The notes beneath the pieces were generated by a model. It did no database searches. It saw only the letters and a list, made by a program, of their open reading frames with translations, and was not told the origin of the DNA. DNA of 32,064 nt from Rhizaria sp. SCN 62-66 (taxonomy: Eukaryota), in NCBI GenBank assembly GCA_001724265.1, contig MEDY01000377.1, positions 1 through 32,064 on the forward strand, written 5' to 3'. Both the position numbers and the translations under genes were made by a program. This document shows, one piece after another, positions 7,801 through 32,064 of this stretch (positions are counted from its first letter, which is position 1; each line of letters starts with the position of its first letter).

Positions 7801-9977
7801 CGGCGTCGAGCCCCGAGGCGGCGAGCGCGCGCTCGGCCGCGGCCGCAGGACCGGCCAGGGCGTCGCGCGACCAGACGACGAGCGAGCGCATCGTCGAGTT
7901 GAGCCCCTCGAGCGCGAGCACGTGGATCTGCGCCTCCTGCTCGGCCGTGATCCAGGACTCCTGCGCGAAGCGCGTGCGCGCGGCGCGCTGCAACGCGTGC
8001 GTGGTAGCGCGGAAGAGGTCCAGCGCAGCGGGGTCGGCGTCGTAGTTGAGGAAGATGTCGACGACCAGCTGGTGGTCGCGTAGCATGCTCACGATGATGT
8101 CCAGCGCCGTCATCTTGTGGTCGAAGGACGAGTTCGGGTGCGCCAGCACCTCGAGCACCACCGAACCCATGAAAGAACTGATCTCCAGCTTCACGTGGGG
8201 ACGGTAGTCCTGGGTCACATTAGGCAAGAAACAAAATATATTGTTTGTTATATAGGTGGTTTGTGAAAATATCATGTGAAATTTAAATAAAAAACAAAAA
8301 TATAGGTGTAAATATGATAAGGTATGTCAAAATAAGCATTGTTTTAATCGATAAGTATTCTTTTCGTACCTGGATGACGGCGGTCCAGAGCGCGGCGGCG
8401 AGGCGGAAGACGTCCTCGACGGGGGCCGTGAGGTTCAGCGCGAGCGAGGGCACCAGCTCCTCGCGGATCAGCGCCACGAAGGGCACGGCCGAGCAGAGCA
8501 CGGGGCCGGGCGCGCGCAGCACCGAGAGCAGCAGCTCCAGCGAGAGCACCTTAGAGCGCTGCGCGATCGGCTCCGGCGGCTCCGAGAGGGGCTTGGCCGA
8601 GAGCTTGCAGAGCGCGCGCAGGATCTGGTACGCGTCGGTCTGCAGCAGCAGCAGGCGCGCCGCCATGCGCTGCCGCGCCGCCGCCGAGTCCAACACCTGC
8701 ACCTGCGACGCCTCCGCAGACGGAGCCTGCGATTGGGATTGCTGGCCGTCGGCATGAGACTCGCTGGGGGCAGCGGCAGTCGTCGACGCAGAAGTGTTGG
8801 TCGGGTGCTCCTGCTCGTTCTCGTGTTCATCGTTCTCGTCGTCGTCGTCGTCGTCGTCGAGCTTGGCGAGGTGGGCCGCAAGCGCCTCCATGCGCTGCAG
8901 CACCGTGTTGAGCATCTGCGTCAGTGTGGCGCGCGCCGTCGAGCGGTTCACCAGCGAACGCGACATGAGGTAGATGTGGTAGCACGCACGGACGGCGAGC
9001 AGCAGCGAGTGGTCGTGCGTGTGGCACGTCGAGCTGGTCACGAGCGTCACCAGGCAGATCATCACGTTGAGCTGCACCTGATCGTCGTCGTACATAGAGC
9101 ACTCGTAGACAGTCTCCACGACCACGTCGATGAGCCGCCGCGGCCGCATCAGCAGCCCGCTCGCCGCCGAAGACACGGCCGCCACGGCCGGCGCGGCGGG
9201 GGCCGCGGCAGAGGAAGAGGCGGCGGGGGCCGCAGCGACAGGGGCGGCGGCGGCGGCAGGGGCGGCGCTGCTGCTGCCGCCGGTCTCGTCGTCGTCGTCG
9301 CCGCCGAGCGCCGAGGCGGCGGCGGCGTCCGCAGCGTCGGCTGCGGCTGCGGCGGCTGCGGCGTCGGTGGCGGCCTCGGCAGCCTTGGCCGCCGCGACCT
9401 CGGCCTCGGAGCTGGCGGCGGCCGTCGCAGTCGCGGTCGCCGCAGCCGTCACGGGCGACGCGGGCGCGGACTCGGACGACGCAGCGGCGGCGGCGGCGGC
9501 GGCGGCGGCGGCAGCCTTGGCCTTCTGCTCTTTCTCGGTTTGCGCCGCCGCCGCAGCGGCCGCCGCAGCAGCAGCGGCGGCCGCAGCGGCCGCGGCCTGC
9601 GCGCGCGCCGTGCTCTTGCTGGTGACGGGCGGCGGGTAGACGGCGGGGTCGACGACCTCGTCGCCGGTGAGGTAGCCGTACGAAAGCAGCTTGTGGATGG
9701 CGCCCAGCGCGATGGCGCGCACCTTGGGCTTGTTCACCTCGCACGCGAGCTTCAGCGGCAGGAAGTACTTGTCCGCAACCGTGTCCACGGGCTGGCCCTT
9801 CTTGTAGCCCTCGTCCTGCTTCTGCAGCAGCTCCGTGACGCGCACGCACTCGGTGCGCAGCGGCTCCTGGCGCCGCGGGATGATCTTGAGGATGTTCGAC
9901 AGCGCCGGGAACAAGATGCCCGGCATCGACGAGTCGTCTTCATTCTGCAGCGAGCCGCGGAACAGGTTCAGAAACAT
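1847..9977 (-). CDS. BIG/Sec7-type large ARF guanine nucleotide exchange factor (DCB-HUS-Sec7-HDS); exons 9977-8370, 8209-7230, 7078-5617, 5454-5083, 4924-1847; about 2499 aa
   Basis: DCB motif FLPLKLACE..KPKVRAIALGAIHKLLSYG. HUS box IFLNYDAD. Sec7 domain with LDDALRKFLQSFDLPRESQMIDRIMERFAGKY (joined across an intron) and FSVVMLHTDAHN..VPKKMSKEEFIRNLRGIDNGKDI. HDS motifs LRGSWAEVL, IQSGW..LF.V, DPRLEVRTKALQTLF, WLQTTC, KCKVQL, FARAFNSD. The four introns join the exons in frame for a total of 7500 nt. Confidence 0.95.
4925..5082 (-). other. spliceosomal intron, 158 nt (ARF-GEF intron 4)
   Basis: CAG|GTACGG...CTTTAG|TCT; phase 0, joins ARCQ to SVLLRPF. Confidence 0.9.
5455..5616 (-). other. 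spliceosomal intron, 162 nt (ARF-GEF intron 3)
   Basis: CAG|GTATGT...TTGCAG|GTC; phase 0. Confidence 0.9.
7079..7229 (-). other. spliceosomal intron, 151 nt (ARF-GEF intron 2)
   Basis: AG|GTACGA...TCTCTAG|G; removal rebuilds the Sec7 motif IMERFAGKY. Confidence 0.95.
8210..8369 (-). other. spliceosomal intron, 160 nt (ARF-GEF intron 1)
   Basis: CAG|GTACGA...CCTAATGTGACCCAG|GAC; joins to DYRPHVKLEI. Confidence 0.9.
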
Positions 9978-10881
9978 CCTTGCGGCAACTCAAAGGCTCA
10001 GGCGAGAGCGGCGTGACTCGGAAGAAGAAAACAGAGTTGCGTTGGCGTCTGTTGTGTGTTGGGCGAGCTGACGCTTGCGCTTGCTTTGGCTCAGGCGCCG
10101 GGGGAGGGAGTTGAGGAGAAAACGAAAGGGGCCTGTCGATTGCGCGTGCGGGCAAGTAGGTGGGGAGTCGAGTGGGGAAGGAAAACGGGAGAACGGGGGT
10201 GAAATGGTGGAGCGAGTAAAGAGAGGAGAGGGTGGTGAGTCAGAGCTGTGGGTTTCAAGCAGATTTCAGCGCGTCAGAGGAACACCAGAGATAAAAATAG
10301 GATAATTCTAAGTAAAACAGTAGCTGAAATCATTGATGAAAACGGCTATGAACGCATAGATGCTTGAGCCAGGGTGTCGTGGCTAGAATTGGAATTTGTG
10401 GGCAAGGATGACGAGGCCAAAGGACAGATTTGAATCCGACTCACAATGAAGCAGGAGACAACGCATGGAACAGCTCAATTGATTTGCAATAGCTTCAAAA
10501 TAACCCGGCTTCATCAAGGAAAAAGTTAGACACTCCCATGCGTCTTGCTCGTCGTCAACAACCTCTGATTCTATTCCCCAACCTTTCGGCCGCGGGTCCG
10601 ACCGACTCTTGCTGCTGCTCGCGTCTAGTGGATGGACCGAAAAATGTGACCAAGCTCACAACTCTCTTCAAATGTCGAGCAAAAAACACACTGCTGAGCA
10701 CCGTGGCCTTTCCGTCTACAGATACACCGAACGAGCATTGGGGTTATTACGTGTTTTTAATTAGATAACTTGTTTTAGCAGTCACCAGAGTGCATATACC
10801 TGTGTATCTCACCCCCTCGACTTGAACTGCTTTTACTCTTTCTCTTGACGCCCACGCCAGTCGGTCCCTGTCGCGCGTCCC

Positions 10882-14773: not shown

Positions 14774-15058
14774 TTGTGCGGCCGTGACTGCGAACCTTAA
14801 TATAATCAGGCTGGCGGAGATAGGTGGTGAATATGAGATACGTTACTTAGAAATTATCCGAAGATTGAGAATGTTGTGAAGTAATACATGTTTTAATCAG
14901 TTCCAGAACTGCTGCATGATATTACAGGATGTGATCGGCTCAAGTTGAGGTGGCCACTTTAAGTCGACTGCAAGAAGTGCAACCTTCATCACGACAATTT
15001 CGTACTTAGCAACGCTGCTATTAAGCTATAAGCTTACAATCATGAATTTGTTGATCTA

Positions 15059-15087
15059 TTTTTGTTTTGTTTTTTGTTTTTGTTTTT
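15059..15087. repeat. (T4-6G)n simple repeat; reads as an A-rich tract on the minus strand
   Basis: tttttgttttgttttttgtttttgttttt. Confidence 0.8.
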
Positions 15088-15237
15088 CACACAGTCAGTA
15101 ATAGAAATCCCGGGTTTCAAACCATACTGACTACACTGCGAATTGCGGGAATACTGAAGGTTACATTACATAGTTCTATTGCTTGAGTTCACTTTACAGA
15201 CGGCACTCTTCTCGCCGTCTGTGATGCCAGTATAGTT

Positions 15238-16193
15238 TCACTCAACATGCGTTCCGTACACGTCTAGATAGGTATTATTCTTAAAGTGATCAACCATGAC
15301 ACTCCACTGTGCATATACCTCCCGGTTACCATGCAATGCTGACGAGCATATTATTAGCTGAACATGTAAGCCTGAACATATTTAATATGCGTATTTCTGC
15401 GAATTTTTTCTCAAGATCTTTCGATGTCCGTGTCCACACCACCGGGAAGTTACAGTTATGTGTTTCATAACTAGGAAGTCTGCTTACTCTTCACCATCTG
15501 CAACAGGCTCCAACTGGAATCCAACTGACGCACTGTAAGCGAACTCTCACTCTGACCCTTCCCGGCTTGTAATTTGTAAAACAGGGAAGAAAACGGGATA
15601 GGACCGAATTGAGAGAGGCGAGCACGCAACATCTCGAAAGCAGCTTGACTAGTCCATTTAAGACCAGAGTCAATGTGGTACAGCCTGGAAAATTGCAGAT
15701 CTTTCGTGATCAACTTGAATTCAGCTTCAGTCTGTGCCTTCTTGCATTTGTCGATCACGGTCGGAAGCGGCAACGTGTGAGGAGGCTCACCATTGATTTG
15801 GCTCGGCACGTTCGTGACAAAGTAGTGGGACGCCTTATAAAATGGATTTTCATGAGACTTCAAATCCGAGTAATCGTATGAATATAAAGAATCAGCTAAC
15901 TTAGCATCATTATGATCGTCATGCAACGTTTTGAACACATGATTGTCGATCTTTGCCAGCCCCCGAAAAAAAGTACACAACTGGTCACAGTCACCACAAA
16001 ACCATGTCTGAAGCAAATAAATTGCTTTAATTTCGTGTGAACCAATATAAGAAATTGCTAATTTTAATGTCCTCTTGATTATTTTCGTTTGCGAAGGAAC
16101 TTACTTTTGTTGATCTCGAAGAAGTGGCTTTTTAGCCCACTGTGTGTTCGGTAACACAACAGTCGTTGATTGCAATGTCATTTGGGAGCTCAT
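15238..16193 (-). CDS. AT-rich orphan gene or pseudogene; main ORF 16007-15488, candidate last exon 15371-15238, candidate first exon 16193-16105 (out of frame with the main ORF)
   Basis: A 181-codon stop-free ORF of ordinary amino-acid complexity in AT-rich DNA. The GTAAGC donor at 15487 and CAG acceptor at 15372 extend it in frame to LHVQLIICSSALHGNREVYAQWSVMVDHFKNNTYLDVYGTHVE*. There is no early in-frame ATG. No family recognised. Confidence 0.4.
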
Positions 16194-16945
16194 GAAGCTG
16201 TTTTGAAAGCGGACACGTTGAACCTCAAGCAGTTCGCAAGCCGCTTGTGTCGAGTCACTACGTTTTACGAATAATTACACACGTTTTGAGTCAAACAACG
16301 CATGCAGGAGTGACCGTGATTGTAAATCAGCGCTGATTGTCGTTATGGAGCAACAGTGATTACAATCTCATTTGTTGCAAAAAAAAAAATTTAAAAAAAA
16401 TGCACTGAGAAAGGAGCCTTGAGATTGTGATTCGAATCGTTTTTGTGTTGACTAAGTTGCTGTTCGGACTGAGGAGCTAAGTCAACAAAGATAAGGCACG
16501 GTACAGCGATAAACAGGACTAGACAGTGATGTCAACGCTGCAAACGCAAGTCAACCGCGAGATACAAAGAATTGTATCTTCATGGACATTCTCACGACGC
16601 CCACAAAGGCGGAAAAGATCTCGCGCATGCGACTGTTCCGTCGGAATCATATTAAGCTTACAGTGAAGTACTTATTAATAAATATGCAAAATTAAAGTAT
16701 CAGATTTACAAAAAATTAATACTAGAGTTACGAATTATAATTATAATGAATAGATATTAATGATTTATTATTTTCACAATGCAACTGTCACATGTAATTG
16801 TGTTTACACGTGCAACATGTACAGTACATTATGCTCCATTTAAGTACCTCAGAGCTAAATAATCGTTGCTTATATCGATGATAGTGGATAAGAAAACCAT
16901 CACAAAAGATATCAAAATCACGTTAGGCATACTAGTCACTATCGA

Positions 16946-19900
16946 TCAATAGTCTGGTGTTGCACGACACAGGGAGCAACCCAACGCAAACTCATGTCCG
17001 TTTGGCGGGTGCACAATGCCCAATGGGCACAATTCAATCCCCGGCTGTGACGGGTGGAGGCCCGGGCAGACGGGGAGTTCGCTGATGGGCTTTTTGGAGA
17101 GGTAGACCCCCATGTTCTGCATGCGGTGGCAGTTGTCGCAGAAATGCGTCTACAGAACGTGAACAGATAAAAAGTGAGTAAAAAGACACATTTTAAGTGA
17201 GCCATTTCATTATCATTCAATATTACGCCAGAGACACATTGATTTAGGAATATTTCTTTTTTCATATCGTGAGTTTCTCTTTTTGTTGACGTACAGTTCC
17301 CCAGCAAAACCAGACCGCAACAGAGCAGCAGAAACGGCACTTGTTCTCCATGAACCCGTCCCCGTGCTTTGGGCACGCACTCGCTGCCGCGGCCGCAGCA
17401 GCTGCGGTCGCAGTGGCCGCCGCCGAAGCTGCCGCCGCCGCTGCGGCCGCCGCGCCCGCGCGTCCGCCCCCGGCCCCCGACGCTGCGGCCGCTACTGCGG
17501 CGGCTGCGGCGGCGGCCTCAGCGTCGAGCTGTGCGAGCTGAGAGCGCGCGATAGAGCAGCCGCCGCACAGCAGCGCGTCGCGCGCGAGACCGCGCAGCTT
17601 GCGGGCAAGGCGCTCGCCGGTGCGCTTGCCGCCGGCGCTTCTATTGTTGTGGGCCGCGAGGGCTGCCGCGGAGGCTGCTGCTGCTTCTGCCTGCTGCTGA
17701 TGCTTGAGCTGTTGCTGCTTCTGTTGCCGCTTTCCGACAGCACTCGCAGCAGCAGGGTTGGCGGCTGCGGCAGCGTTGGCGACCGCAGAGTCGTTGGCTT
17801 GGCTGGCTGGCTGCGATGCAGCACCAGAGCCGGAGCCAGAGTCAGAGCCAGCTGAGGGAGCGGCGACAAGAGCAGGGCCAGGAATCGGGGGCATCGCAAG
17901 CTGCAGCAGCGCGCGGTCGAGGAAGAGCAAGGGACGCCACAAAGCTTCGGCCTCAGCCTCAGTCTCAGCGTTCGCGTGTGTGGAGTTCGCGGCTTTGTCG
18001 GCGTCGGAGTCGGCGGGGTTGACACTGTGATTGATGTGCCCGAGATAGGGGTTTCGCGCAGTTGCAGCGGCGTCAGCGTGGCGACGGCGACGATGACGAC
18101 AGCGGTGACGTTTGCCGTCGTCGTTGTTATTGTCATTGCTGCCGTCGCCACAGTCGTCGTCGCTACCGTCAGCCATCCGCTGCCCCTGTCCATGTCCCTT
18201 AGGCTTGCTCCTGCGACTACCGCTGAGGCTGTTGCAGCGACTGTGTTTCGGCAGGCAGCCATCCTCCTCTTCCTCTTCCCCTTCCTCTTGCTGCTGCTCG
18301 CGGTCATTGAGCTCGCTGTCAGAGTCTCTACCGCCGTCGCTGTGATCACCGTCGCAACCACTGCCAAAATCACTGCCGCAGTCGCTGTCGCCGAAGCCGT
18401 CGCCCTCACCATCGCCGCCGCTGTCGTTGTCGCTGTCGCCGGCAAGCGCGATATGCACCCCGTCCACGCCATTAACGCTGCCGCTGCCGTGGCCGTTGTG
18501 CAGGGGCGCGGCGTCGTCGTCGCAGCGGCGCTGCCCGCCGAAGAATGGCACGCGGCACACCGCGCAGGGGTAGTACGAGTAGCGGTCCATGGCGTACGCG
18601 ATGAGGTTGCCGTGGAAGCGGCCGCCGCGCGACGACACCTCGCTCGTGTTCTAAGCGTAAAGCAAGAGAGACAATAAGGTTGGGCAGTACAAGTGAGCGT
18701 GATAAAGCAGTGATAAGTCGTAGACGACTGTACAGTACATTCAAATTTCATGATAAACTCAAGAGCATGGAACACAGTGAGTGGAGTATAGATCGTCATT
18801 CCTGTTTTCCGCCAAGTTCGACGTACGGCGAGTCCCTCTGCGATGGTCCGCTGCACGGCCTTGTCGGCGACAACACCGCGCAGCCAGCGCCACGCGCCGA
18901 CCAGCCCCCTGATCGCGGGGTGGCCGTGCACGACGTCGCCGCGGCCCAGCGCCGCCGTCACCGTCGCCAGCGAGCACGCCGAGGCCGAGGCGGGCGCCAC
19001 CGCGAGCACCGGGGCCAGGGCAGACCCAGCGCCAGCGCCAGACCCAGAGCTAGAGCTAGAGGCTGAGGCAGGGCCGGGGGCAAGGGCAGCAGCGGCGGCT
19101 GCAGCAGCGGCGGCGGCGCGCGCGGGCAGGCAGAGAAAACGCCCGTCGGCGTCGGCGGCCGCGTCCGCGGTGTGCGCGGGCCCGCAGACAGGGCAGGCGA
19201 GGAAGGCAAAGGAGAGGTAGGAGGTGGGCCAGGCCGAGCGGAGCTTAGCCACGATGCAGTGCAGATGGAAGGTGTGGCCGCACGAGAGCTATGGGTGATA
19301 ACACAAAGCAAATTGCAAACAAAAGGACGAAAAGAAAAAAGATTTGGTGTTAGTACAGATAGTTATTTCAAGATGTGTTCTTGAATATACGCAGATGAAA
19401 AGATATAGCGCTGAAAGTTCGTTTTCGAGTCGTACCTCGACGCAGGGCGCGGAGCCCAGGTCTTCGGTGCAGCACACCTGGCAGTAGTCGTCACCATACA
19501 GCGCTGCGCCCGCCGCGCTCCTGCCGCCGCCCTTCTTGAGCGACGGCGCGGAACTGCTGAGGCCGTTCTGACCGCTGCGATCGTCGCCACAACTGAAGTG
19601 CGAGTACGGGCAGTCGCGCCGCAGACAGCCCACGTGCGCGCCCTCGGCGCCGCTGCACGCCGCGCCAGCACTGCCACTGTCGCCGCCGTCGCCGGGGCCG
19701 CAGTGGGCGCCCGCGCAGGGGTGGCCGCAGGGTAGAACGCGGAGACACGCGGCGCGAAGCCGGTCCAGGCAGCCGGCGCGGCGACAGCACAGCACGGGCG
19801 GCCGCGGCGGCATCTGCAGCGCGCTGCCACTAGCATTCGCACTCGCATTCACAGTCGCGCTGCGTGTGTTGTTGCCGTTCCTATTGTAAGCAGCAGATGC

Positions 19901-21277
19901 GGCACTGGTGTCGAAGGCGTCGCCATCACGGTTCGCAGGGAGCAGAGAGGAGTCTTGCGGCAGCAGCAGCGCCAGCCCGGCCTCGGTCAGCCCGCAGTGG
20001 TGCGCAAACAGCGCGCGCGCCGCAGCGGCGACCGCAGTTATGTCGTCGCCACCATTGTCTTGCGACTGCGAGTTTCTCGCGGTTGAGCTGTTGCTGCTTT
20101 GAGGGCGGAGGAAGGCTAGGTATGCCTGCAGTGACAAGTGAGCGCCCTCGTAGCACCAGGGTGCCGCGAGGTCGGGGTAGGCCTTGGCGCCCCAGGAGGC
20201 GGTTGAACCACTTGCATTCGACGCAGAGTTACTTGGACTCTTGGACACGTTCTTCGACTTGCTATTCTGGCTCTCACCATCTTTGTTGAGAGCAGGAGAG
20301 TGACTATGGGCGCGCGCAAACGCTGTGCCGTCAGCGGCTACAGAAGCCGCAGCAGCCGAGCCCCAAAGAGTAACACCACGCGTCTCATTAATCGCGCCCC
20401 TGCTCTTCTTGCATTTGCGCTTTCTCGCGCCGCTACCCCTGGCTCTGAGCGGCATGAGCTGCGGTACAAACACGGTTTTGGCGTCGACGCCCTCGCCGCA
20501 GTAGCGGCAGCACTCGCCGAGCCGCAGCAGCGCCCACTCGTCGCACGTGCTGCCCGCGTGGTACGGCGCCGCGCCGCAGCACGCGCAGAAGTCGGCCACG
20601 CTGCAGCGCGCCGGCTTTGAGTGCGGCTGGGACTGGGACTGGGGTTGGGCATAAGGCTGAGAGTGGCCGCAAACACTGCTGCTAGGAGTGCTGTTGTTGT
20701 GGTCGACGTAAGTGCTGCTGTGGAGACACTTGAACCGGTGCTGGTTGCGGTGCTGGACGGCTTGCGGGGACAGGGGCGTGCCGGTGGGGCCAAGCTCTAA
20801 GTAACCCTTAGACTTCGGTGCGGCATCTAAGTGACCGCCAGCAGCAACAGCTGTGTTGTTGTTCGAGCCAAGTGACTCAGACTCTAAATGGGTCGGTATG
20901 TGGTCTAAGTAGGTCCCAAGCGTGCCCGGCACATACTGCCACTGCGTGTGCAACTGAGGCTGTAACGGAGGTTGCAGGGCGAGTGCAGCAGAGTAGCTCG
21001 GAGCAGAGACTGCAATGCGATAGCCCTGTTGCTGCTGTTGTGAAGCAGAGCCGACAGAGACTGCAACAGCAGACGCAGCCGCGACTGCGGCTGGGGGCGA
21101 GCTGAAGAGCGTGTTGATGCTGTTCTTGGCTTTGAGGCTGCGGCCGCCGACGAGCTTCGACGGCGTCCTCAGCGACGCGGTGCTTAGATGCGGTACGAGG
21201 GTACTTACATTGTCAGCGTTACCACGCAAGCTGTCCGTGGACGTGTTCATGGCACTACTTGCGCTCGCGCTCGCGCT

Positions 21278-21358
<81 letters not shown>

Positions 21359-24300
21359 GATTATGTGAATGTGAGACTGTGACAGCGCAGCGAGTGCGGC
21401 CGCCGCGGCCGCAGGCGTGGCCAGCGCGTCGGCCAGGGCGGCGGCCCAGGCGCGCGCGTACAGCGCGAGGCGTTCGTAGAGCACTGCGAGGCCGGCCGGG
21501 GAGAGGTGCTCACAGTCGCTCGCGCTGCGCTCACGGTCACTTGCAGCGCGCTCACGGTCATTTGTGGCGCGGCCACAGCCGCTCTTAGTCGAGAACCACG
21601 ACGGGAGTCCGCTGGGGGCGCTGCTGCCATAGTCACTATTGCCGTTGAGCACAGCAGCAGCGGCCTCGGCCTCGGCGGCCGCGACAGCAGCGGCAACTTT
21701 GGCGACTGCGAGCCCCTCAGTCCCATCAGCAGCAACAGCAGCAGCGAGTCCAAGCGCCTCGGACGTCGCCGAAGTGAGGGCCTGCGCGCGGCCGTTACTG
21801 CCCACAGTGCTTGGCGGCAGCGCCGGCAGCCGCGTCGCCAAGGTGTCCTCGCCGTCCGCGCCGCCCGTGCAGATGGGACTGGCGCTGTTGGCGGCGGCAA
21901 ACGCGCACTCGAGCGGTGTCGCCAGCGCCGCCGCAAGCGCGGGCCCGCCCGCGAACAGCGCCCGAAGCAGCGGCAGCGCGCCGTCCCATGTCGCAACACT
22001 GCTGCCAGCGCCAGTGCCAGTGTACGTGCCGGCGGCCCGTGCGCGCGCCCAGAGGTCCCGGCCGTGCGGCGCCGCGACCGCGGCAAAGGACGAGGAGCCC
22101 GTGGCCTCACAGAGGGACAGACACGCGCTGGGAACGACAGCGACGCCAGTAGCAGAGGAGTAACTGTGAGCGGTCGCAGTGGCAGCGGCAGCGCCGGCAG
22201 CCGGTTTGGCGGCGTTGGGGCACTGGACATAGCGCGTCACGGCCACGCCCCAGTAGTCACCCGCAGGCACCGCGCTTGCGTTCGCGTTTGCGCTATTCAC
22301 ACCGACCGCACTTGAGCTGGAGGCAGCGGGGCGCGAGCCAAAGCCGCCGCTGTACCCGGAGCTGTAGTCGTTCGTACGATGGGCGCGGTCGTGCGCACTC
22401 GCAGTGCTGATGTGAGTGTTGTCGCTGTGGTTACGGCTTTGAAGCGAGTCGAGGAGTGCAAACTGCAGCACGTTGGGCAGGGACTGCACTGCGGCGGCAG
22501 CAGCACCAGCGTCACTAAGGGCAGCGTCGTTGGGCTGACTGCTGTGTGAGACTGAGAGGAAAGAACATGCGTGTGCTGTAGGGCCGAAAAGCGCTGCGCC
22601 GCTGGACTCAACGCGAACGCTCACTCTTGCGCTGGTATTCGGCTTAACAGCAGAGACAACAGCAGAGCTGAAGCTACTGCTTGTTGAGCCGTTTTGTTGC
22701 TGCAGTGCGCGGGTGGCCGCCGCAGACCGAGGCCGGACGACCTTAACCACGACGCTGTCCTCACCCGCGCTCGCACCAGCACTGCGGCTATGGGTCACCA
22801 CAACGACGTTGTTGCCGCTCATGGCGCTGCTACCGTTGCTAAGAGTGACTGTGGGCGACTGGGGGAACGCGGTGTACAGACCATGGGGGAAATACCCCTC
22901 GCGTGCAAACGGCAGCGCGGAGAGCAGGCGGCTTAGCTTCGATTCAGCGACACTCGCACTTGCGCCAGAGTGTGCACCCGGGTGCTTCGCGTGGGTTTGA
23001 CTGCTCGATGGCAACGCCAGCGTCGCCGTGCCCCAGCGGCCGCCCAGTTGCTGCTGCTGCTGCTGTAATTGTTTGGCTGCCATTCTAGCAGTGACGCTGG
23101 CCGGCACCGCACCGTAGATGGTGTCATCGTCGTGAGTGCTGTTGCAGCCGCTGTTGGAATACGGCGCGAGCGCGGCTGCCAGCGTTTTCAGCGCAGCCAC
23201 GCTTTCGCCCTCGCGCACGGGGGCGCACGCTAAGTCCTGTGCGTCTAAGCGTGAGTGGGGGTGCGACTGTGCCAGCGAGCCAGAGTGTGCAGACCCGGGC
23301 CGCGGCGGAGGCATTGCGCTGAAGCCGTTGATCGTGCTGTTGTTGCTGCTAGTGATCGCAAACGGCACGCTGCTGCTGCTGCTCGTGTTGAGATTGCTGT
23401 TGCGGCTGTCGGCGCTGATGCTGACGTCGTTGTCGTTGTCGTCATCGTCGTCGAACTTGAGTGCGGCCGCGACAGAGAGCTCCAGCTCAACGTCCAGGTC
23501 ACTGTCGCTGTCGAGGTTGTTGCTGTTGTTCGCAGCATCACTCGCATAGTCGTCGTCGTCGTCGTTGCTGATGTTGCTGAGCTGACGGCGGTTACCCGCG
23601 CCCCTAGCGCCGCCCACAGAGTTCCTGTCAGCGCTACCATTGCCAATACCGTTGATGTTACGCTTCGCAGACATAGAGGCCTTAGCGGCGTTGTTGTCTT
23701 GGGATGCAGATGCGTTATTGTTTGAGGCGGCACCTAGACGGTCTAAGGGTGTGCGGCGGCCGTGTAAGGGCGTGGCACGCGCAGGCAGCGGGGTCACTGC
23801 AACACTCGCGCTTCCATTCCCACTTACACCGAGCACGGGTGTGGCACGCGCACGGGCTTGGCGCTTCACTAGCGGTGTCGCAACAGAGTCTAAGTGGCAG
23901 TTGTTGTTATCATTAACATCATTAAGCTGCTGTTGCACTACAGCAGAGGCATCCTTATTGCCACATGCATCAACACCGTCATCACCCATCCCATTGGCGT
24001 TCGCGTTGCTGCTGAGATTGGGCGCAGGCGACACGTCAACAAAGGACCGCTTGGCCCGGCGTACCGGCGACAGCGCCCGTGACAGCGCCTGCAACAGCGG
24101 CGCGCTGCCACCGGCATTCACACTGTGAGCATTCGCAATATTGTTGTTGTTGGCGTTGGCAATAGAGCGCATTTTAGTCGGCGAGGACACGGAGCCCGCC
24201 ACGGACACAACACCCGCGCCGGAGCCCGAGCTAGAGCCAGAGCCAGAGGCAGGGGCGGGGGCTGAGACTGAGATGGAGACTGGGACCGGGACGCCGCCGG

Positions 24301-26746
24301 GGCCAATGCTCGCCCGCTTGCTGCCCATGATCACCGTGCGCCGCTGCCTCGCCAGTACGTTGCCCGTCGCAACACCACTCGCACTCACACCCGCGTTCAG
24401 GTTGATGCCCGCATTGGCATCGCTGCTCGCGGCAGCGGATGCACTCGCAGAGGCGGAGGCAGCGGTTGTCAGCGGCGGCCGCGGCAACAACAGCCTGCCG
24501 CCGCCGCCCGCGGCAGCGACACCCGCAGCGGCGTTGCCGTTACGGCTACCCACAGCAGCAGCAACAGCAGCAGCCGAGCTCGAGTGACCGTGCGCGGCAG
24601 CGACGGGCAGGTGACCGTGGGTCGCGGCCGAGCACCTGGCGGGCAGCGCGGCGCTGGCGGCGTCGGCCGCGTCCGCGCCGGCACCGGAGGGGTGTGAGTG
24701 ACTATGGGCAGCGGAGTGACCGTGGGCAGCAGCTGACATGGCAGAGAGATTGAGGGTCGAGCTCAAGTTGGTGTTATTGTTATTGCTGTTGTAATGCTGA
24801 GGGGACGCAAAGGCCTTTTGCTTAAGCGGAGTCTTGAAGCCGCTCAGACCGCCGACGTTGGCGCTGCAAGCACTTGCAGGCACAGGCTTGGCCTCCGACT
24901 CCGCTTCAAGATCAAGGTCAAGCGATAAAGCAAGCGCGTTGTTATTCGCGCCAGTGTCGGCAACAGCTGCAGCGGGCGCGGGGCGCGAACGAGGTTTAGA
25001 CTTAGGCTTCGCACTGGAGTTGTGCAGGCTGGTGCTGCGACCAGGAGTGGCGATCGACAGCCCCCGCAGCGAGGCCGCCGCAGCGGAGCCAGGTGTCTGG
25101 ACAGCTGCAGCCGCGCTGGGATTCGCACTTACACTAACACCGGACGCGTGCGAGCTCAGAATGCGCTGAATCGGGGTACTTAAATGGCCGGCATGGTAAC
25201 CGCGAGAGTGACTATCATCGTTTCCGTTGCTACTGTTGCCGCTGATGCTGTTGTTGCTATTGTTGGACGTGCGGACACGGCGAGGGGTAGAGGCAACAGC
25301 AGAGGCACCCTTAGGACGAGTACTTACATTCACACTGCTTGCATTGCTGCTGTTTTTGCTGCGTTCGGCTTGCTGTTGCTGCCGTTGCAGCAAGGCTTGT
25401 TGCTGCTGTTCCTGCTGCAATAACAACTGCATTTCTTTCCGCTCGAGCTCGAGCTCCAGCTCCTTCGCTTGCGCCCGCGCCTGCTGCTGCTGCAGCTCTC
25501 GCGCCTGTGCTTTGGCCTTCATTTTCTCTGCGAGCGAGCCGAACTGATTTGAGTACCCGCCGTCTAAGGAGGCACTTGCATTCCCACTTACACTGCCGAT
25601 CGAGGCAGCGCCGGCCGCAGCGAGGGGCCCCTGACTGACGCTCACATTGAGAGCATAGTGACCGACAGAGCCGGAGCCAGAGCCGGACAGAGAGCTTAAG
25701 ACAACAGGAGGGAACGGGTCAGAAACGCGGCCGAAGGAGGCCGGCAGCGCGGCAGAGACATCGCCGCCACTGTCGCGACCTCTGTGACTCTGGCTGTGGC
25801 AGAGACGCTGACTGCCGCCGTGACTACTACTGTGACTCGCATTATCACCCTCGTAGTCATCGCTCATAGCAACGCTGCCGCTACTGCCCCCGTCATTATC
25901 AACAACTTCGTACCGCCCGCGGCTACCGCTTGCGCTTGCGCTTGCGCTTAGCGAGCTGCTACTGTCACCGTTGCTGTTGCTGTTGATGTTGCTTTGAGTA
26001 CGGCTGTGGCGAGGGCTGCGACGCGGGCTTGCGCACGACCGGCCAGCGGGGGCGAACGCAGCGGAACCCGCGTTAGCGCTGGTGCCAGCGCTTGAGACGG
26101 AGTTTGTGTTGGTGTTTGATAAGTTTGTAGTGGAAACAGGCGAGAACGAAAGCTTCTTCTCTAAAACAGGACTCGCAACACCACCAAAGCAGCCGCTGCT
26201 ACTAGCAAGACTGCTGCTGCTGCTGTTGCGGCGCCGTCGCGGTGCTGTCGCAGCAGCGCTGACGCTGACGCTCGCACCAGCAGCAGCGAGTGACGAAGAC
26301 GACGACGCCGCCGACGACGCTGGGAGCTGGGCATGATGACTGCTATGAGAGCCTGAGTTTAGGTTCAGAAAGCCCGAGACCGAACGCGTCCCGGCGCTCG
26401 ACGCAGCCGAGCCCGCGGAGTGCTGCGCTACAGTAGAGGCCGCTGAGGCTGCTGAGGCCGACGACTGCGGCGACGACTGCATCGAGTGTACTGACAAGGC
26501 GGGGGAGGCGGACGGCGCGCGGCGCGAGGACTCCGCGGCGGCAAACGGCGAGCGGAACGGCGCGGCCGCTAAGCCGGCCATAACAGCTGAGCCCGCTGCC
26601 GAGGCTGGCGAGGACAGGGAGGAGGCTGAGACGGGGGCGAAGGGCGACTGAGGCCCGTGGATGACGGCTGCGGTGGCCTCGATCAGGGACGAGCGGCGGC
26701 GCGACAACGCGCGCGGCACGTCGGAGAATGCCGGCGAGAAGGACAT
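16946..26746 (-). CDS. MYCBP2/PHR C-terminus-like RING-Cys-relay (RCR) E3 ubiquitin ligase with an IBR-like segment and a very long low-complexity N-terminus; exons 26746(or 26875)-19436, 19288-18827, 18650-17295, 17149-16946; about 3110 aa
   Basis: The spliced product contains ACLRVLPCGHPCAG; RING DDYCQVCCTEDLGSAPCVE|LSCGHTFHLHC...[105 protein letters not shown]; and CPLGIVHPPNGHEFALGCSLCR. These blocks are collinear with the MYCBP2 C-terminus as I recall it. Confidence 0.9.
17150..17294 (-). other. spliceosomal intron, 145 nt (RCR gene intron 3)
   Basis: ACT|GTACGT...CTGTAG|ACG; removal rebuilds FCWGTTHFC. Confidence 0.95.
18651..18826 (-). other. spliceosomal intron, 176 nt (RCR gene intron 2)
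   Basis: GCC|GTACGT...CGCTTAG|AAC; phase 0. Confidence 0.85.
19289..19435 (-). other. spliceosomal intron, 147 nt (RCR gene intron 1)
   Basis: GAG|GTACGA...TACTAAC...CCATAG|CTC; removal rebuilds the RING segment PCVELSCGHTFH. Confidence 0.95.
21278..21358 (-). repeat. (AAC)26 + AAT coding microsatellite encoding 27 Asn
   Basis: perfect GTT repeat at 21281-21358 on the plus strand, in frame in the RCR gene. Confidence 0.95.
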
Positions 26747-27285
26747 CGGGCGAGAGGCGGCCAAAGCGGCAACGCGCCCGGGCGCGGGGTGGGACGGGAA
26801 CGGTCGGGTGGGCACAGAGAGGGAGATGCTAAGTGTTCGAGAAAGACCACTGTGCGGGTGCGCTCTGAAGTGCATTTAAAATTAAAAAAAGGTATAGAAT
26901 AATTAGCACTAATAAAATCCATAAATGGTATGCATAAATATTTTGACGACGCAGTTATGCCGCTGCAAACGCCTAAAAATCTCTCGATTCACCGACGACC
27001 TTGGCCATCTCTTGTGCTGTCTGTCCGACCCGTTGGCAGCTTGCTCTTGCTTTGTGGTGGCTCAGTTGGACTGGGCCGAAACAAGACGACGGCACACCGT
27101 ACGCTGTTGCCGAGAGGAAGCGGTTTTGAGATCGTGTTTCTCCATGGTTTTTCGTCAGAGCGGTATGATTTAAACATTTTTAGGGCTATTTATGTGTGGT
27201 TTATTACTTCATTAATTGTTTTTTCTTAGCTCACCAGTCTTCATTCTCTGGTGTACACTTTCTTTTCCCTCTGCCCAGCCTCGAA

Positions 27286-27510: not shown

Positions 27511-28599
27511 GCAGTCAGCTACCACTTTTCTGACCACACATTTTGTTTGCGCAACTTCCCACACAGACTCAGCTATACTCCACATCACTCAGAGTCCCAC
27601 TCATACCTCGCTATGCCGGCCGAAACAAGGCCATGATGGGGCTGAGTAGTGGTCGACATGTGTAGCTTTAGCTGAGAGAGACTTTGCACTTCAAGCCGCT
27701 TAGAAACTTGTTACATAGCACCTTAAACAGTGATTTATGCATGATTACTATATTTCCAGACGCCATACTCACGTTTTAGCGCGTCAATTTGGCCACCATT
27801 GGTACCCACGCACATCCACTGTGACTACATACACACTCTTATTCGAATCTTGCGCTATTAAATCTTGCATGCCTTGCTACATCACAAGTTTTCAAGTTTT
27901 AACGCAAATTTCTATGCAAAATTTCAAACATTATATTCATCAACGTAGCCATATGTTATTTGCCAGCCAAACTCGAAGTGACCGTGAGCAGGCAGACTGA
28001 CAAAGTTTAGTCACCCCTACATTTTTGAGCCCTCGACCCCGATGAACGACCCGGCCCAGGATTTCATTTACGACATTTTTGCGACCAATCGCTGCCCGAG
28101 AGTGCTAAATTTGAAAACGACCCGTCTTAGCGGGGCGGAGTAGATTTATATGTGGACGTGAGTGTACTTTGCTAAATCCGGAATTCCCCCGGGCAATCCT
28201 GCCGCGCGGGGCGGGTTCCATGTCGTGCCATTCCCGCTTAGTTGAGAGTGCTCGAGGTCCCTGACGTCGCCTTCCCGCCCTTCGTCCGCTTCCCCACCAA
28301 CGCCCCGCACGCTCTGGCTTTGATATCCATATGCACGGGCGCGTCGTATTGCGTGTGTTTATGTTGGCTCCCCGCACCGATGCACTTTATTCCGCAAAAG
28401 CACGCATTTCTCCTGCCTCAATTCGAAAAGTTGGCTTCCTCCTCTACACCCGCCCCACCTCACACCCCATTCCTACCTTCATATCTCCTCTGTTTGCTCT
28501 CTAATCCCGACCAAACTCTTTCCACACCCACTTTCCGATCTCATATCACTAAATGTTGCGTCGCTTCTGACTTGCGTAGCGTTTGTCCGACTGAGCAGG

Positions 28600-31500
28600 A
28601 TGTCTGACAACCGCCCCCCCACGTCGATGCAGCTGCACCCCGCGGCCGGCCTCGAGAGCCTCGGCGCTCTCAACGAGGCCCAGGCGCAGCAGGCCGCGCA
28701 GCAACAGGCGCAGGCCCACGCGCAGGCCCAGGCCCAGGCGCAGGCAGCGGCGCAGCAGCACCACCACCACTCCGGGCTGGTGCCGCCGCCGCCGCCGCCG
28801 CCGGCGCACCAGCCGTTCCCGCCGATGATGGACGCGCTGCACGTGCACCCGCAGTCGCACTTCATGCTCTCGGGGCTGGGGCTCGACCCCGCCGCCGCGG
28901 CCGCCGCGGCTGCCGCCGCCGCCGCGTCGGCCGCGATGCAGCAGCAGCACCAGCAGATGCAGCTGCAGCAGCACCAGGTTCCTCCGCAGCTGCACCAGCA
29001 CCAACACCACCAGGTCCAGCACCAAGTGCAGCACCAGGTGCAGCAGCAGCAGCCGCAGCCGCTGCAGCCGCTGCACTCGCATCACGCCCACCACGTCCCC
29101 CACGCGCACGCGCACGGCGTCGTCGCGCACGGGCACACGCACGGCCACGGGCATGGCGTGGCTCCCGGACTCATCTACCCGCCCATGCCGCCTGTGGGCC
29201 CCGTGGGCCCCGTGGGCCCCGTTGGTCCTGTCGGCCCGGTGGCCCCGGGGACGTTGCACGGCCACCCCGGCCACCCCAGCCACCCAGGCCACCCCGCGCA
29301 CGCGCACCTGATGCACCAGCACCAGCACCAGTCGGCCGCCGCGCTCCAGTCGGCGGCGGCCGCGCTCCAGGCGCAGGCGCAGGCCGCGCAGGCGCAGGCC
29401 CAGGCGCCGTTGCTGGTCGACTCGGCGGGCCTCGGCGGCTACCAGACGCAGGCGCAGGCGCAGCAGAGCCAGCAGCAGCAGCAACAACAGCAGCAGCAGG
29501 CGGCCGCTGCCGCCGCTGCTGCGGCCACTCAGAGCCAGCAGCAGCAGGCCCAGCAGTCGCACCAACAGCAAACCCAGGCGGCTCAGGCCGCCGTGGCCGC
29601 CGCCGTGGCCGCCACTCAGCAGCAGGCTCAGCAGCAGCAGCAGCAGCAGCAGCAACAGCAGGACCAGAATGCGGCTGCGGTCGCTGCGGTCGCCGCCGCC
29701 GCCGCCGCTGCCTCCCCGGTGTCGGTCGGCAACGCGGGCGCTAACGAGGCCGCCCAGCAACAACAACAACAGCAGCAGCAGCAGCGCAAGGACGGCGCCG
29801 CGGCCGGCAAGGACGCCTCGGACGCCGCCGCCGCCGCCGCGGCCGCCGCCGCCGCCGCACACGCGCACGCCGCCGCGGCCGTAATGGGCGGCGTCCCCGC
29901 CGGCCTCACCGCGCCCGGACTGGGCGCCGCGGGGCTGCGGCTCGTGGGCGGCCCCGGGCTGCCCCCAGTGGCGGGCGGACTCGTCGACCCCGCGCAGGCC
30001 GCCGCCATGGCTGCCGCGGCCGCCGCGGCGACGCCCGCGGCGCGCGCGGCGGCAGCTGCGGCCGTGGCCGCCATGAACAAGCAGCAACAGCAGCAGCAAC
30101 AGCAACAGCAGCAGGCGCAGCAGCAACAACAGCAGATGCACCACNCCGCCGCCGCGGCCGCCGCGGCCGCCGCCAACCAGCAACAGCAGCAGGCCCAGGC
30201 GCAGCAGCAGCAGCTGCAGCAGCTGGCGCAGGCGCAGGCGCAGGTGGCCCAGGCTCAGGCCCAGCAGGCCGCCCAGGCCCAGCAACAACAGGGCCAGACG
30301 CAGGCGCAGCAGGGCGCGCAGCAGGCGGCCGCAGCGGCGGCGGCGGCGGCGGCGGCAGCGGCCTCGCTGGTCAACGCACGGCGCCCAAAGGGCCGGCCCA
30401 CGAAGGAGGTTTCGGCGGCGCTGCGGCAGGAGCGGTTGGCGCAGGGGCTGGACCCCAACCCGCGGCTCAAGCAGAAGCTCATCTCGAACAAACTCGCCGA
30501 GGTGGGGCTGCGGCGCGCGCGCGGGCGGCCGAAGAAGGACGACGCCGAGGCCATCCTCAACATGATCAACATGGGCCCCCAGCAGCAGGCGCAGCAGCCG
30601 CCGGGGCAGGGCCTGCTCGACTCCGCGGCCGCCGCTGCCATCGTCGCCGCAGCCAACGCGGCCTCGCGCGGCGCTCTGGGCCTGTCGCCCACTGCGGCCG
30701 CGTCCCCGGCCGCGATTACCGCGCCCGCGGACGACTCCGCCGCCGCCGTCGCCGCTGCCGCTGCCGCTGCCGCCGCGGCTGCCAACGGCGGTCTGCCGGG
30801 GCTGGGCCTCGGTGCGCTGCCCCCGCCTGTCCACGGCCACGCCCACGGCCACGGCCCGGTGACGCTGGCACCGCCCGGCACGCTCACGGCTGCCGCGGAT
30901 GCTGACGCCGCCGACAAGGTCTCCCAGCAGGGCCAGGCGATGACGGACGGCGACTCGCCGGCCGCGGCGCCCTCGGCCGCTGCAGCCGCGGCCGCTAAGT
31001 CAGTGGACGCCGTCACGGCCGCCGTCGCCGCCGTCGCCGCCGCGGCCGCCGCCGCCCAGCAGCAACAGCAACAACAGCAGCAGCAGGCGCAGGGCCCCTC
31101 TGCCAACTCGGCCGCCGGCGCCGGCTCCGGCGACGCTGCGGCCGCCGCGACCCACGCTGCCGTGAGCGCCGCCGCCGCCGCGGCCGCCGCGGCCGCCGCG
31201 TCCATGTCCCAGCAGCAACAGCAACAGCAACAACAGCAGCAGCAGGGCCGTTTGATGATGCTGTCGCCCGTCCCCGTTGCCGTCGCCCAGCAGCAGCAGC
31301 AGCAGCAACAGCAGCAGGGCCAGCCGCCCGCGGGCCTGCGCCGCACGACCGCCGCGACCGCCCAGGGTCCCCCCGGCCAGCTGGTGAGCGTCGTCGGTGG
31401 CATGCACCCCTCGACCGGGCTCGTTGCGGCGCCGCCGCGCGGACTTGTGCCCTCGGCCGCCGCGGCCGCGGCGGCGCCGCCGTCGAGGGCCCCAAGCGCC

Positions 31501-32064
31501 GCGGGCGGCCCCCGATGGCGCGCGTCGACCCGACGGGCGGGGAAATCCCCTACGTGTCCCCGACCGTCGCCGCCGCCGTCGCCGCGTCCATGGCGGCCGA
31601 CGTGGCTGCGGGCCGGACCGTCTCGGAGGAGTCGTCGCGCATCCTCGCCGCCGCCGTCGCAGGCCGCCTCGCGGCGCAGAAGCGCGCGGCAGAGAAGCGC
31701 CGCGACCTCAAGCGTCGCGCCGCCGCCCGCCAGCGCGAGGAGAAGGCTGCGGCCGCCGCCGCGGCCGCGGGGCTTGCCGGCGCGGACACCGCGCGCGCGC
31801 TCTCCGCCGCCGCGCTCTCCGCCGCCGCGCTCGATGACGCCGCCGCCGCCGCCGACGCGAGCCTGGGCGGTGAAGGCGGTGTGCCGCTGCCGGCCGACGC
31901 CGACGCCCTGGCCGTGGCCGCGCACGCCGCCGCCGCCGCCGCGCAGGCCGGGCCCTCCGCGATCGCTGCCGCCGCGGCTGCTGCAGCCGCTGCTGCGGCC
32001 GCCGCTGCCAACGGAGGCGACGTCGACGCCGCACTGCTGGCGCAGTACAACGGCGACCCCAGCG
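28600..32064 (+). CDS. polyQ/polyA/His-rich AT-hook protein (putative chromatin or transcription regulator), 3' end outside window, apparent frameshift near 31475
   Basis: ATG at 28600 (MSDNRPPTSMQLHP) opens a long frame missing from the supplied track. AT-hook-like motifs RRPKGRPTK (30379-30405), RRARGRPKK (30511-30537) and, in the shifted frame, KRRGRPP (31494-31514). Many CAG/CAA and GCN runs. One ambiguous base (N) at 30145. Confidence 0.8.
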   Translation, partial: MSDNRPPTSMQLHPAAGLESLGALNEAQAQQAAQQQAQAHAQAQAQAQAAAQQHHHHSGLVPPPPPPPAHQPFPPMMDALHVHPQSHFMLSGLGLDPAAAAAAAAAAAASAAMQQQHQQMQLQQHQVPPQLHQHQHHQVQHQVQHQVQQQQPQPLQPLHSHHAHHVPHAHAHGVVAHGHTHGHGHGVAPGLIYPPMPPVGPVGPVGPVGPVGPVAPGTLHGHPGHPSHPGHPAHAHLMHQHQHQSAAALQSAAAALQAQAQAAQAQAQAPLLVDSAGLGGYQTQAQAQQSQQQQQQQQQQAAAAAAAAATQSQQQQAQQSHQQQTQAAQAAVAAAVAATQQQAQQQQQQQQQQQDQNAAAVAAVAAAAAAASPVSVGNAGANEAAQQQQQQQQQQRKDGAAAGKDASDAAAAAAAAAAAAHAHAAAAVMGGVPAGLTAPGLGAAGLRLVGGPGLPPVAGGLVDPAQAAAMAAAAAAATPAARAAAAAAVAAMNKQQQQQQQQQQQAQQQQQQMHHXAAAAAAAAANQQQQQAQAQQQQLQQLAQAQAQVAQAQAQQAAQAQQQQGQTQAQQGAQQAAAAAAAAAAAAASLVNARRPKGRPTKEVSAALRQERLAQGLDPNPRLKQKLISNKLAEVGLRRARGRPKKDDAEAILNMINMGPQQQAQQPPGQGLLDSAAAAAIVAAANAASRGALGLSPTAAASPAAITAPADDSAAAVAAAAAAAAAAANGGLPGLGLGALPPPVHGHAHGHGPVTLAPPGTLTAAADADAADKVSQQGQAMTDGDSPAAAPSAAAAAAAKSVDAVTAAVAAVAAAAAAAQQQQQQQQQQAQGPSANSAAGAGSGDAAAAATHAAVSAAAAAAAAAAASMSQQQQQQQQQQQQGRLMMLSPVPVAVAQQQQQQQQQQGQPPAGLRRTTAATAQGPPGQLVSVVGGMHPSTGLVAAPPRGLVPSAAAAAAAPPSRAPSAAGGPRWRASTRRAGKSPTCPRPSPPPSPRPWRPTWLRAGPSRRSRRASSPPPSQAASRRRSARQRSAATSSVAPPPASARRRLRPPPRPRGLPARTPRARSPPPRSPPPRSMTPPPPPTRAWAVKAVCRCRPTPTPWPWPRTPPPPPRRPGPPRSLPPRLLQPLLRPPLPTEATSTPHCWRSTTATPA

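Follow-up and report, generated by a model that had tools for sequence, protein, structure and literature searches.

The RING-Cys-relay (RCR) mechanism of ubiquitin transfer has been described, in the literature surveyed, from a single enzyme, the 4,640-residue animal MYCBP2 (PAM/Phr1/Highwire/RPM-1), which is listed as a notable atypical human E3 (PMC13061254). Its RING-H2, linker helix and tandem-cysteine (TC) domain are represented by PDB entries 5O6C and 6T7F. Section 8 of a review (PMC9120709) describes the mediator loop as disordered in the MYCBP2 crystal structure and the relay as dependent on transient ordering of that loop, an 'entropic spring', and section 13 of PMC9527308 gives the downstream site of MYCBP2 a Cys/His/Glu catalytic triad. 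The RBR ligases (HOIL-1, HOIP, ARIH1/2, parkin and RNF216) are likewise transthiolating E3s. A full-text literature search found no publication on non-animal RCR or TC-domain ligases, most subscription journals and two primary papers being outside its reach. Here we analyze contig MEDY01000377.1 of Rhizaria sp. SCN 62-66 (assembly GCA_001724265.1), a stretch of 32,064 nt that we call the window, in which a gene on the minus strand encodes a protein of 3,153 residues, the window protein, with a RING and TC module at its C-terminus. We consider it likely that this is a real coding gene of a GC-rich microbial eukaryote and that its predicted product is a divergent RCR-type E3, which lies outside the animal MYCBP2/PHR orthologues and belongs to a large, mostly non-animal family.

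The C-terminal module and its gene

A sequence-only reading of the window had held that the C-terminus, once spliced, is homologous to the RING and TC module of MYCBP2, and the PDB searches agree with it. With each C-terminal exon compared separately with all PDB sequences by phmmer, the only significant matches were the MYCBP2 chains 5o6c and 6t7f, at E 8e-17 for exon 3 (two stretches), 1.5e-10 for exon 4 and 1e-3 for exon 2, which holds the second half of the RING and aligns with residues 29-64 of 5o6c; the weaker rows, at E 0.085-8.6, are unrelated proteins. Human numbering is the chain position plus 4377 (the 263-residue chain begins at 4378), as confirmed by the entry's own numbering. The codons of the two cysteines picked out by that reading are exactly where it had placed them, and in the resulting alignment these cysteines fall on human C4520 and C4572 and the CxxCH histidine on H4583. 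The TC domain is not seen by any Pfam model, neither exons 3 and 4 nor the TC-only fragment P0007 giving a match, and the RING gives weak Pfam RING matches and a 60-bit block in a family profile built from six compact homologues. The elements of the module, with the conservation of key columns among 264 collected relatives, are as follows.

20465..20803, minus strand: IBR-like block, residues 2025-2137 (C..C...PYH.G.TC.EW....CRYC); 7 of the 8 Cys/His of the second half of the family IBR are kept
19610..19789, minus strand: zinc cluster before the RING, residues 2363-2422 (CC..GC...C....PCGHPC.G ... GCLRRDC); counterparts for 9 of 9 family Cys/His
19184..19483, minus strand: RING-H2, residues 2465-2515 (C-x2-C...C-x-H-x2-H-x2-C...C-x2-C), interrupted by intron 1
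18513..18922, minus strand: linker helix and N-terminal part of the TC domain, residues 2603-2680, interrupted by intron 2
18524-18522, minus strand: upstream (mediator-loop) Cys2677 in FFGGQRRC, aligned with chain residue 143, human C4520; column Cys in 260 of 264 relatives
17556..17567, minus strand: CxxC zinc ligands Cys2996/Cys2999 (LLCGGCS), anchored manually, the HMM not having aligned this island; the preceding RDALL carries the position equivalent to Glu4534
16958..17378, minus strand: core of the TC domain, residues 3059-3150, 146 bits and E 1e-46 with the family profile, interrupted by intron 3
17306-17304, minus strand: downstream (esterification-site) Cys3083 in VWFCWGT/TH (the slash marks a splice junction), aligned with chain residue 195, human C4572; column Cys in 262 of 264
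17128-17126, minus strand: His3094, at the end of CDNCH, aligned with human H4583; column His in 262 of 264

Six blocks of the spliced protein, colinear with the family profile, match it (280 bits, E 2e-87), and their extents include the IBR-like block at 2025-2137, the zinc cluster at 2342-2390, the RING at 2427-2516, the linker and N-terminal part of the TC domain at 2603-2680 and the TC core at 3048-3149. The RING-H2, upstream of the TC domain, has all eight zinc ligands (C2465, C2468, C2483, H2485, H2488, C2491, C2512 and C2515). Across the RING and TC domain together there are counterparts for 29 of the 29 Cys/His of a compact protein from the ciliate Stentor (P0004, introduced below), including both relay cysteines and the histidine, and the TC domain taken by itself has counterparts for all 20 of those in the Stentor domain (C448 to C570). 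The pre-RING zinc cluster also occurs in animal PHR-type proteins, MYCBP2 among them.

Since global hmmalign did not span the inserts, the window protein was placed by block-wise mapping, in which 46 of the 56 columns invariant in 60 compact relatives were found to be present. Three further invariant Cys/His were recovered by eye, in GCLRRDC and LLCGGC; the remaining columns are five ligands of RING1 and the first half of the IBR that have no counterpart, one IBR Cys, and the Tyr of YFGG, which is replaced by Phe. Neither Pfam nor the family-profile mapping detected a RING1 upstream of the IBR-like block or an Rcat/RING2 in the window protein. As judged from these blocks, the window protein keeps the family module except for RING1 and the first half of the IBR.

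The gene model has four exons, and the three introns that the sequence-only reading had called are supported, each being GT..AG and phase 0 with junctions that fit the homologue profile.

16946..26875, minus strand: whole gene, 4 exons, 3,153 codons plus stop; the putative start is the ATG that opens the long open reading frame (ORF) at 26875
26875-19436, minus strand: exon 1, 2,480 codons, an uninterrupted ORF in which a low-complexity stretch of ~2,020 aa (Ala/Ser/Gly/Asn) is followed by the IBR-like block, the zinc cluster and half of the RING, as far as ...APCVE
19435-19289, minus strand: intron 1, 147 nt, GTACGA..AG, phase 0, GC 0.35, within the RING
19288-18827, minus strand: exon 2, 154 codons, with the rest of the RING-H2 (LSCGHTFHLHC...CPVC), then an Ala-rich insert of 86 aa and the beginning of the linker helix
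18826-18651, minus strand: intron 2, 176 nt, GTACGT..AG, phase 0, GC 0.43
18650-17295, minus strand: exon 3, 452 codons, running from the end of the linker through the N-terminal TC part, which holds the mediator Cys, and both inserts to FCWGT in the TC core
17294-17150, minus strand: intron 3, 145 nt, GTACGT..AG, phase 0, GC 0.32
17149-16946, minus strand: exon 4, 67 codons plus stop, from THFCDNCH... to the end of the TC domain (E 1.5e-10 to 5o6c)

Joined by script, the four exons give a coding sequence (CDS) of 9,462 nt with one terminal stop. The main support for this model is that none of the three junctions, APCVE/LSCGH, AEGLA/NTSEV and FCWGT/THFCD, opens a gap in the alignment with the profile of six compact homologues. 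In the stop-to-stop listing a frame of 2,528 codons occupies 19289-26875, with the quoted motifs carried by three shorter frames downstream; the long frame of exon 1 runs to 2,480 codons and the other frames reach ~310 aa. GC content is 0.32-0.43 in the three introns versus ~0.63 in the exons, and a 90-nt GC scan found AT-rich islands in the gene only at the three introns, at an (AAC)n poly-Asn run and at one Asn-rich patch. In chunks of 900 nt along the CDS, GC3 exceeds both GC1 and GC2 in 8 of 11 and exceeds GC1 in all 11. The poly-Asn run is an (AAC)n-type trinucleotide repeat at 21250-21399, within exon 1, and encodes ~30 Asn.

The sequence-only reading had recognized no RCC1-like, PHR, filamin or DOC domain in the N-terminus, which it took to be of low complexity, and Pfam and composition uphold both points. 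The N-terminal ~2,020 aa are of low complexity (whole-protein composition: Ala 18.9%, Ser 14.9%, Gly 8.9% and Asn 6%), and a Pfam scan of the 2,480-aa exon 1 product returned no family at E<=0.1, hence no PHR, RCC1-like, filamin or DOC/APC10 domain. The same scan finds PHR in six giant relatives and RCC1-like in five of these six, the exception, P0117, having PHR and SH3_3 only. With PHR, RCC1-like and DOC domains undetected, the window protein is therefore not a PHR/MYCBP2 orthologue, and its architecture differs from that of the animal PHR proteins. None of the 264 family proteins is matched by residues 1-2020 in BLASTP at E<=10, and an Atlas feature search with residues 1290-1700 gave no usable match. 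A single-sequence AlphaFold model of residues 1300-1680 has a mean pLDDT of 35, and is either disordered or uninformative. When residues 1960-2480 were compared with proteins of similar length, 0 of 7,997 candidates were scored, low complexity having probably crowded the word index.

Compact relatives and the wider family

An exhaustive phmmer search of 1.84 billion cluster representatives with a 156-aa TC-only fragment found 1,341 TC-domain clusters at E<=1e-3, 830 at E<=1e-10 and 98 at E<=1e-30; among the best 150 matches most are 450-800 aa long, with the TC domain at the C-terminus. A search with exon 4 retrieves compact proteins of 570-805 aa, including SteCoe_21592 of Stentor coeruleus (P0004, 580 aa). 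A profile search with named results gave 284 matches at E<=1e-10 among 8,000 scored candidates, with names taken from the 120 listed. These include proteins of the ciliates Stylonychia lemnae, Tetrahymena malaccensis (ABPG74_016449) and Moneuplotes crassus, MMETSP and EukProt transcripts, and animal MYCBP2 fragments. Many entries have a precomputed Pfam IBR; automatic names among them are 'E3 ubiquitin-protein ligase MYCBP2', given to proteins of 400-700 aa, and 'RCR-type E3 ubiquitin transferase'. These searches show compact TC proteins to be numerous, ciliates being among the named ones. This qualifies the novelty claimed for the locus: the difference in architecture from animal PHR proteins stands, but TC proteins without PHR are abundant in public sets, as the 830 clusters show.

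Compact members, of ~450-800 aa, are built of an RBR-type RING1-IBR half followed by a small zinc cluster, RING-H2, linker helix and TC domain. Classed by where their match to the compact-family profile begins, the 264 relatives divide as follows.

From the N-terminal RING1 region: 155 of 264
From the IBR onward: 27 of 264
From the zinc cluster or RING only (including the animal PHR type, whose match begins near profile position ~270): 57 of 264
TC-only fragments: 25 of 264

The Stentor protein aligns to 5o6c over 251 residues at E 2e-70. Its AlphaFold model, built with 60 aligned relatives, has a mean pLDDT of 85, and residues 324-574 of the model superpose on MYCBP2 4384-4638 with VIA Z scores of 18.8-19.2 (237-239 residues aligned, rmsd 4.2-4.5) and, in Foldseek, with E 5e-25 and TM by target 0.74-0.76. 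On the strength of sequence and model, we regard P0004 as a bona fide RCR-type protein. Its residues 105-265 superpose on the RING1-IBR part of RBR ligases: HOIL-1L 278-420 is matched at Z 9.3 (rmsd 11.3 Å, 133 residues aligned), fits restricted to RING1 are tighter (RNF216, Z 8.9 and 2.9 Å; HOIL-1 8eaz, Z 8.9 and 2.2 Å), and HOIP 697-850, ARIH2 and parkin 233-378 give Z 5.7-7.8. These RBR-match Z values are only modestly above the background quoted for the tool, and they agree with the precomputed Pfam IBR. In the compact family, unlike the RBR ligases, a RING2/Rcat is not recognized and a zinc cluster, RING and TC domain stand in its place; the window protein shows only the second half of the IBR.

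By sequence the compact proteins of Stentor, Stylonychia, Tetrahymena and Moneuplotes are the closest to the window protein, the last 89 residues being up to 70% identical. Compact non-animal proteins are colinear with it from the second half of the IBR to the C-terminus and share with it a Trp after the catalytic Cys and a Gln in place of an animal Phe. They differ from it in their length of 450-800 aa, in the 42-62 residues between their relay cysteines and in having an N-terminal RBR-type RING1, whereas the window protein has 3,153 aa, an undetected RING1, a low-complexity N-terminus and six expanded loops. Most likely, the window protein has lost a recognizable RING1 and has acquired large disordered regions. 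In animal PHR-type proteins the match to the family profile begins at the zinc cluster, and five of the six PHR giants sampled lack the IBR remnant that the window protein keeps.

Pfam finds other front ends among 12 long TC proteins: six have PHR (five of them also RCC1-like), two have SPRY, one has ubiquitin and C2, and three have nothing. P0056 (1,516 aa), P0086 (2,434 aa) and P0062 (1,550 aa) are TC proteins in which SPRY, or ubiquitin-like and C2 domains, accompany the RCR module. Animal MYCBP2 is reported to work with SPRY-domain partners (PMC12664034), which makes the fusion of SPRY to an RCR module suggestive. P0113 (3,603 aa) is a PHR and RCC1-like giant whose family-profile match begins at position 91 and so includes the RING1-IBR region; it would fit a RING1-IBR-RCR arrangement ancestral to the animal PHR proteins. 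An ESM Atlas cluster of 73 proteins, of which the commonest phylum is Bacillariophyta, combines an FBA (F-box-associated) domain with a RING and is similar in structure to the TC region of Stentor (TM 0.62 by query); it may represent a further TC-domain architecture, one of diatoms. The TC fragment P0154 (188 aa) has Trp at several positions that are Cys in relatives, which could reflect the wrong genetic code in translation or sequence errors.

Weighing the explanations

In the reading that we favor, ligase activity of the window protein is plausible. By homology, the RING would bind ubiquitin-charged E2, ubiquitin would be passed as a thioester to Cys2677 in a flexible mediator loop and then relayed to Cys3083, and His3094, possibly with Asp2992, would catalyze its transfer to the substrate nucleophile. 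In MYCBP2 this nucleophile is a Thr/Ser hydroxyl. Substrate choice presumably resides in the disordered N-terminus or in partner proteins.

All the loops that separate the conserved blocks are enlarged by Ala/Ser/Gly-rich sequence. Representative lengths, with those of P0004 counted from its Cys/His positions, are as follows.

IBR to zinc cluster: 236 aa in the window protein versus ~10 aa in P0004
RING to linker: 86 aa versus ~13 aa in P0004
17583..18512, minus strand: insert 1, residues 2681-2990, Ala/Gly/Ser/Asp-rich, just after the mediator Cys; 310 aa versus ~8 aa in P0004
17379..17552, minus strand: insert 2, residues 3001-3058, between two TC zinc ligands; 58 aa (37 of them Ala) versus 8-9 aa in human and Stentor

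Contigs from three sequencing runs were compared with the window, the (AAC)n run at 21250-21399 being left out as a repeat. Contigs 95-99% identical to the locus are present in X1, a poly(A) metatranscriptome of activated sludge, and in X2, a run of unrecorded type. The X1 contigs fall on exon sequence; X2 covers introns as well, and one X2 contig carries intron 1 unspliced (19168-19492). The strain differences listed comprise 34 exonic ones, of which 11 are synonymous and 23 non-synonymous, and 3 intronic ones; the exonic differences are spread evenly over the codon positions (13/9/12). In the conserved blocks 3 of 3 are synonymous, whereas outside them 8 are synonymous and 23 non-synonymous (p 0.028 in a one-sided Fisher test, which is weak here), and the sole indel relative to the related strain is of 3 nt. 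From these differences and the in-frame indel it follows that the low-complexity parts drift almost neutrally, with frame and catalytic blocks preserved.

Several of these observations, and others from the module itself, weigh against an intact relay or against the gene model. As a result of inserts 1 and 2, the distance between the relay cysteines of the window protein is 406 residues, versus 52 in human MYCBP2 and 42-62 in the other 236 sequences in which both motifs were found, so that it is the sole outlier of 237 (265 sequences were counted, the 264 relatives and the window protein; the downstream pattern is missing in 26 relatives and the upstream one in 2). Given the 'entropic spring' model as set out in section 8 of PMC9120709, a disordered insert of 310 aa in the mediator segment could impair the relay. 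At the position of Glu4534 the window protein has Ala2993, with Asp2992 one residue earlier (human RELIC versus RDALLC, on the manual CxxC anchoring), although this column is not invariant: 233 of the 264 relatives have E/D there, and the six commonest residues listed also include H/Q/T/R, which account for 22 more. Immediately after the catalytic Cys the window protein, like 190 of the 264 relatives, has Trp where animals have Phe, and another downstream-site column holds Gln, as in 141 relatives, where animal proteins again have Phe; the spacing, the Ala and these two residues weaken the proposal of the sequence-only reading that this is an active, non-lysine ubiquitin ligase. Pao et al. (2018) reportedly found that those Phe residues line the threonine pocket, and with both replaced the threonine preference of MYCBP2 cannot be carried over. 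In a FastTree analysis of 246 sequences the conserved core of the window protein lies on a branch of 1.02 substitutions per site, with support of 0.34-0.35 and no supported neighbor. None of the three expected splice junctions is among the joints listed from the RNA contigs (15 of 37), which are short-sided repeat artefacts, and exon 4 is almost uncovered. The near-neutral evolution of the low-complexity parts noted above counts on the same side.

The main alternative, which takes up these points, is that the RCR fold has been kept while the relay has been disabled by the 310-aa and 58-aa inserts together with the Glu-to-Ala change, leaving an ordinary RING E3, a single-Cys enzyme or a non-catalytic scaffold. 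The unique spacing, the Ala, the long branch and the published link between the relay and the dynamics of a short mediator loop (PMC9120709, section 8) would all be accounted for. But both cysteines, the histidine and all the zinc ligands have been kept despite near-neutral drift in the adjoining inserts, which is hard to explain without selection on catalysis. Moreover, an Asp stands one residue ahead of the Ala, and both inserts lie in loops that are already flexible, mapping to lower-confidence parts of the Stentor model (mean pLDDT 56 for residues 461-470 and 73 for 481-490). We judge a disabled relay to be unlikely. With flanking ligands and catalytic residues kept, we treat the 406-residue spacing as a feature of a variant and see in it no ground for excluding the protein from the RCR class.

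The same spacing, as an extreme outlier, and the failure to obtain a junction in the RNA contigs could also be taken to mean that the gene model is incomplete, further atypical splicing removing part of the insert between the cysteines and restoring a normal distance. This we hold to be improbable. The insert has exon-like GC and no AT-rich island, versus the low GC of the introns, exon 3 is in frame and stop-free over 1,356 nt, and its only GTACG falls within the conserved IAYAMD codons. Three X1 poly(A) contigs are colinear with the genome in the insert region (17509-17775, 17896-18164 and 18375-18628), and four other loops of the module show a like expansion by low-complexity sequence. Cryptic introns as the source of the inserts were rejected on composition and donor motif. 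That the gene is a pseudogene, a decaying or untranslated relic whose frame survives by chance or through its repeat structure, might be suggested by the overall excess of non-synonymous over synonymous differences (23 to 11) and by the lack of detectable relatives for the N-terminal 2,020 aa. It is nevertheless the least credible of the alternatives, and very improbable: the 3,153-codon frame spans four exons, its splice sites are intact and its one stop is terminal; no Cys/His of the P0004 RING or TC domain lacks a counterpart; strain differences in conserved blocks are without exception synonymous, and the sole indel is in frame; and a poly(A) RNA library contains near-identical sequence. 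The reading that we favor is that of a real, divergent variant of a known enzyme class.

Neighboring genes and implications for the RCR class

Elsewhere in the window are the following features; Rfam gave no match anywhere in it.

1847-10016, minus strand: multi-exon BIG/Sec7-type Arf-GEF gene, with Pfam DCB, HUS, Sec7 (over two frames), HDS and BIG2_C in successive ORFs
15000-17000: AT-rich stretch (GC 0.38-0.42) between GC-rich genes
15471-16100, minus strand: 209-aa stop-free frame of ordinary composition, with no Pfam match
28324-32064, plus strand: open-ended frame of 1,247 codons, GC 0.63-0.80, with no Pfam match

The Arf-GEF neighbor confirms a eukaryotic chromosome context. The 209-aa frame could be a small gene or the remnant of a mobile element, and the open-ended frame is probably another low-complexity-rich gene, divergent from the ligase gene.

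Set beside a mechanism described from one very large animal protein, the searches reported here show the RING and TC module to be common in microbial eukaryotes and joined there to other front ends, namely an RBR-type RING1-IBR, SPRY, or UBL-C2. The compact relatives are small, tractable enzymes for mechanistic and structural work, and they offer a lead on the evolutionary origin of the RCR class. The locus alone is one divergent member of the family; greater interest attaches to the picture at family level and to the extreme mediator insert. With its greatly lengthened mediator segment, the window protein is a naturally occurring variant that can be used to probe how the relay depends on loop length. 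We put forward, as a tentative and still rather doubtful possibility, that the RCR ligases are an old and widespread eukaryotic family that may have arisen from RBR-type ligases, with RING1-IBR kept and the Rcat replaced by a RING and TC domain, and that this locus may encode a relay still working with a tether ~350 residues longer than that of any other member. If true, it would be a natural experiment bearing directly on the 'entropic spring' model of the relay.

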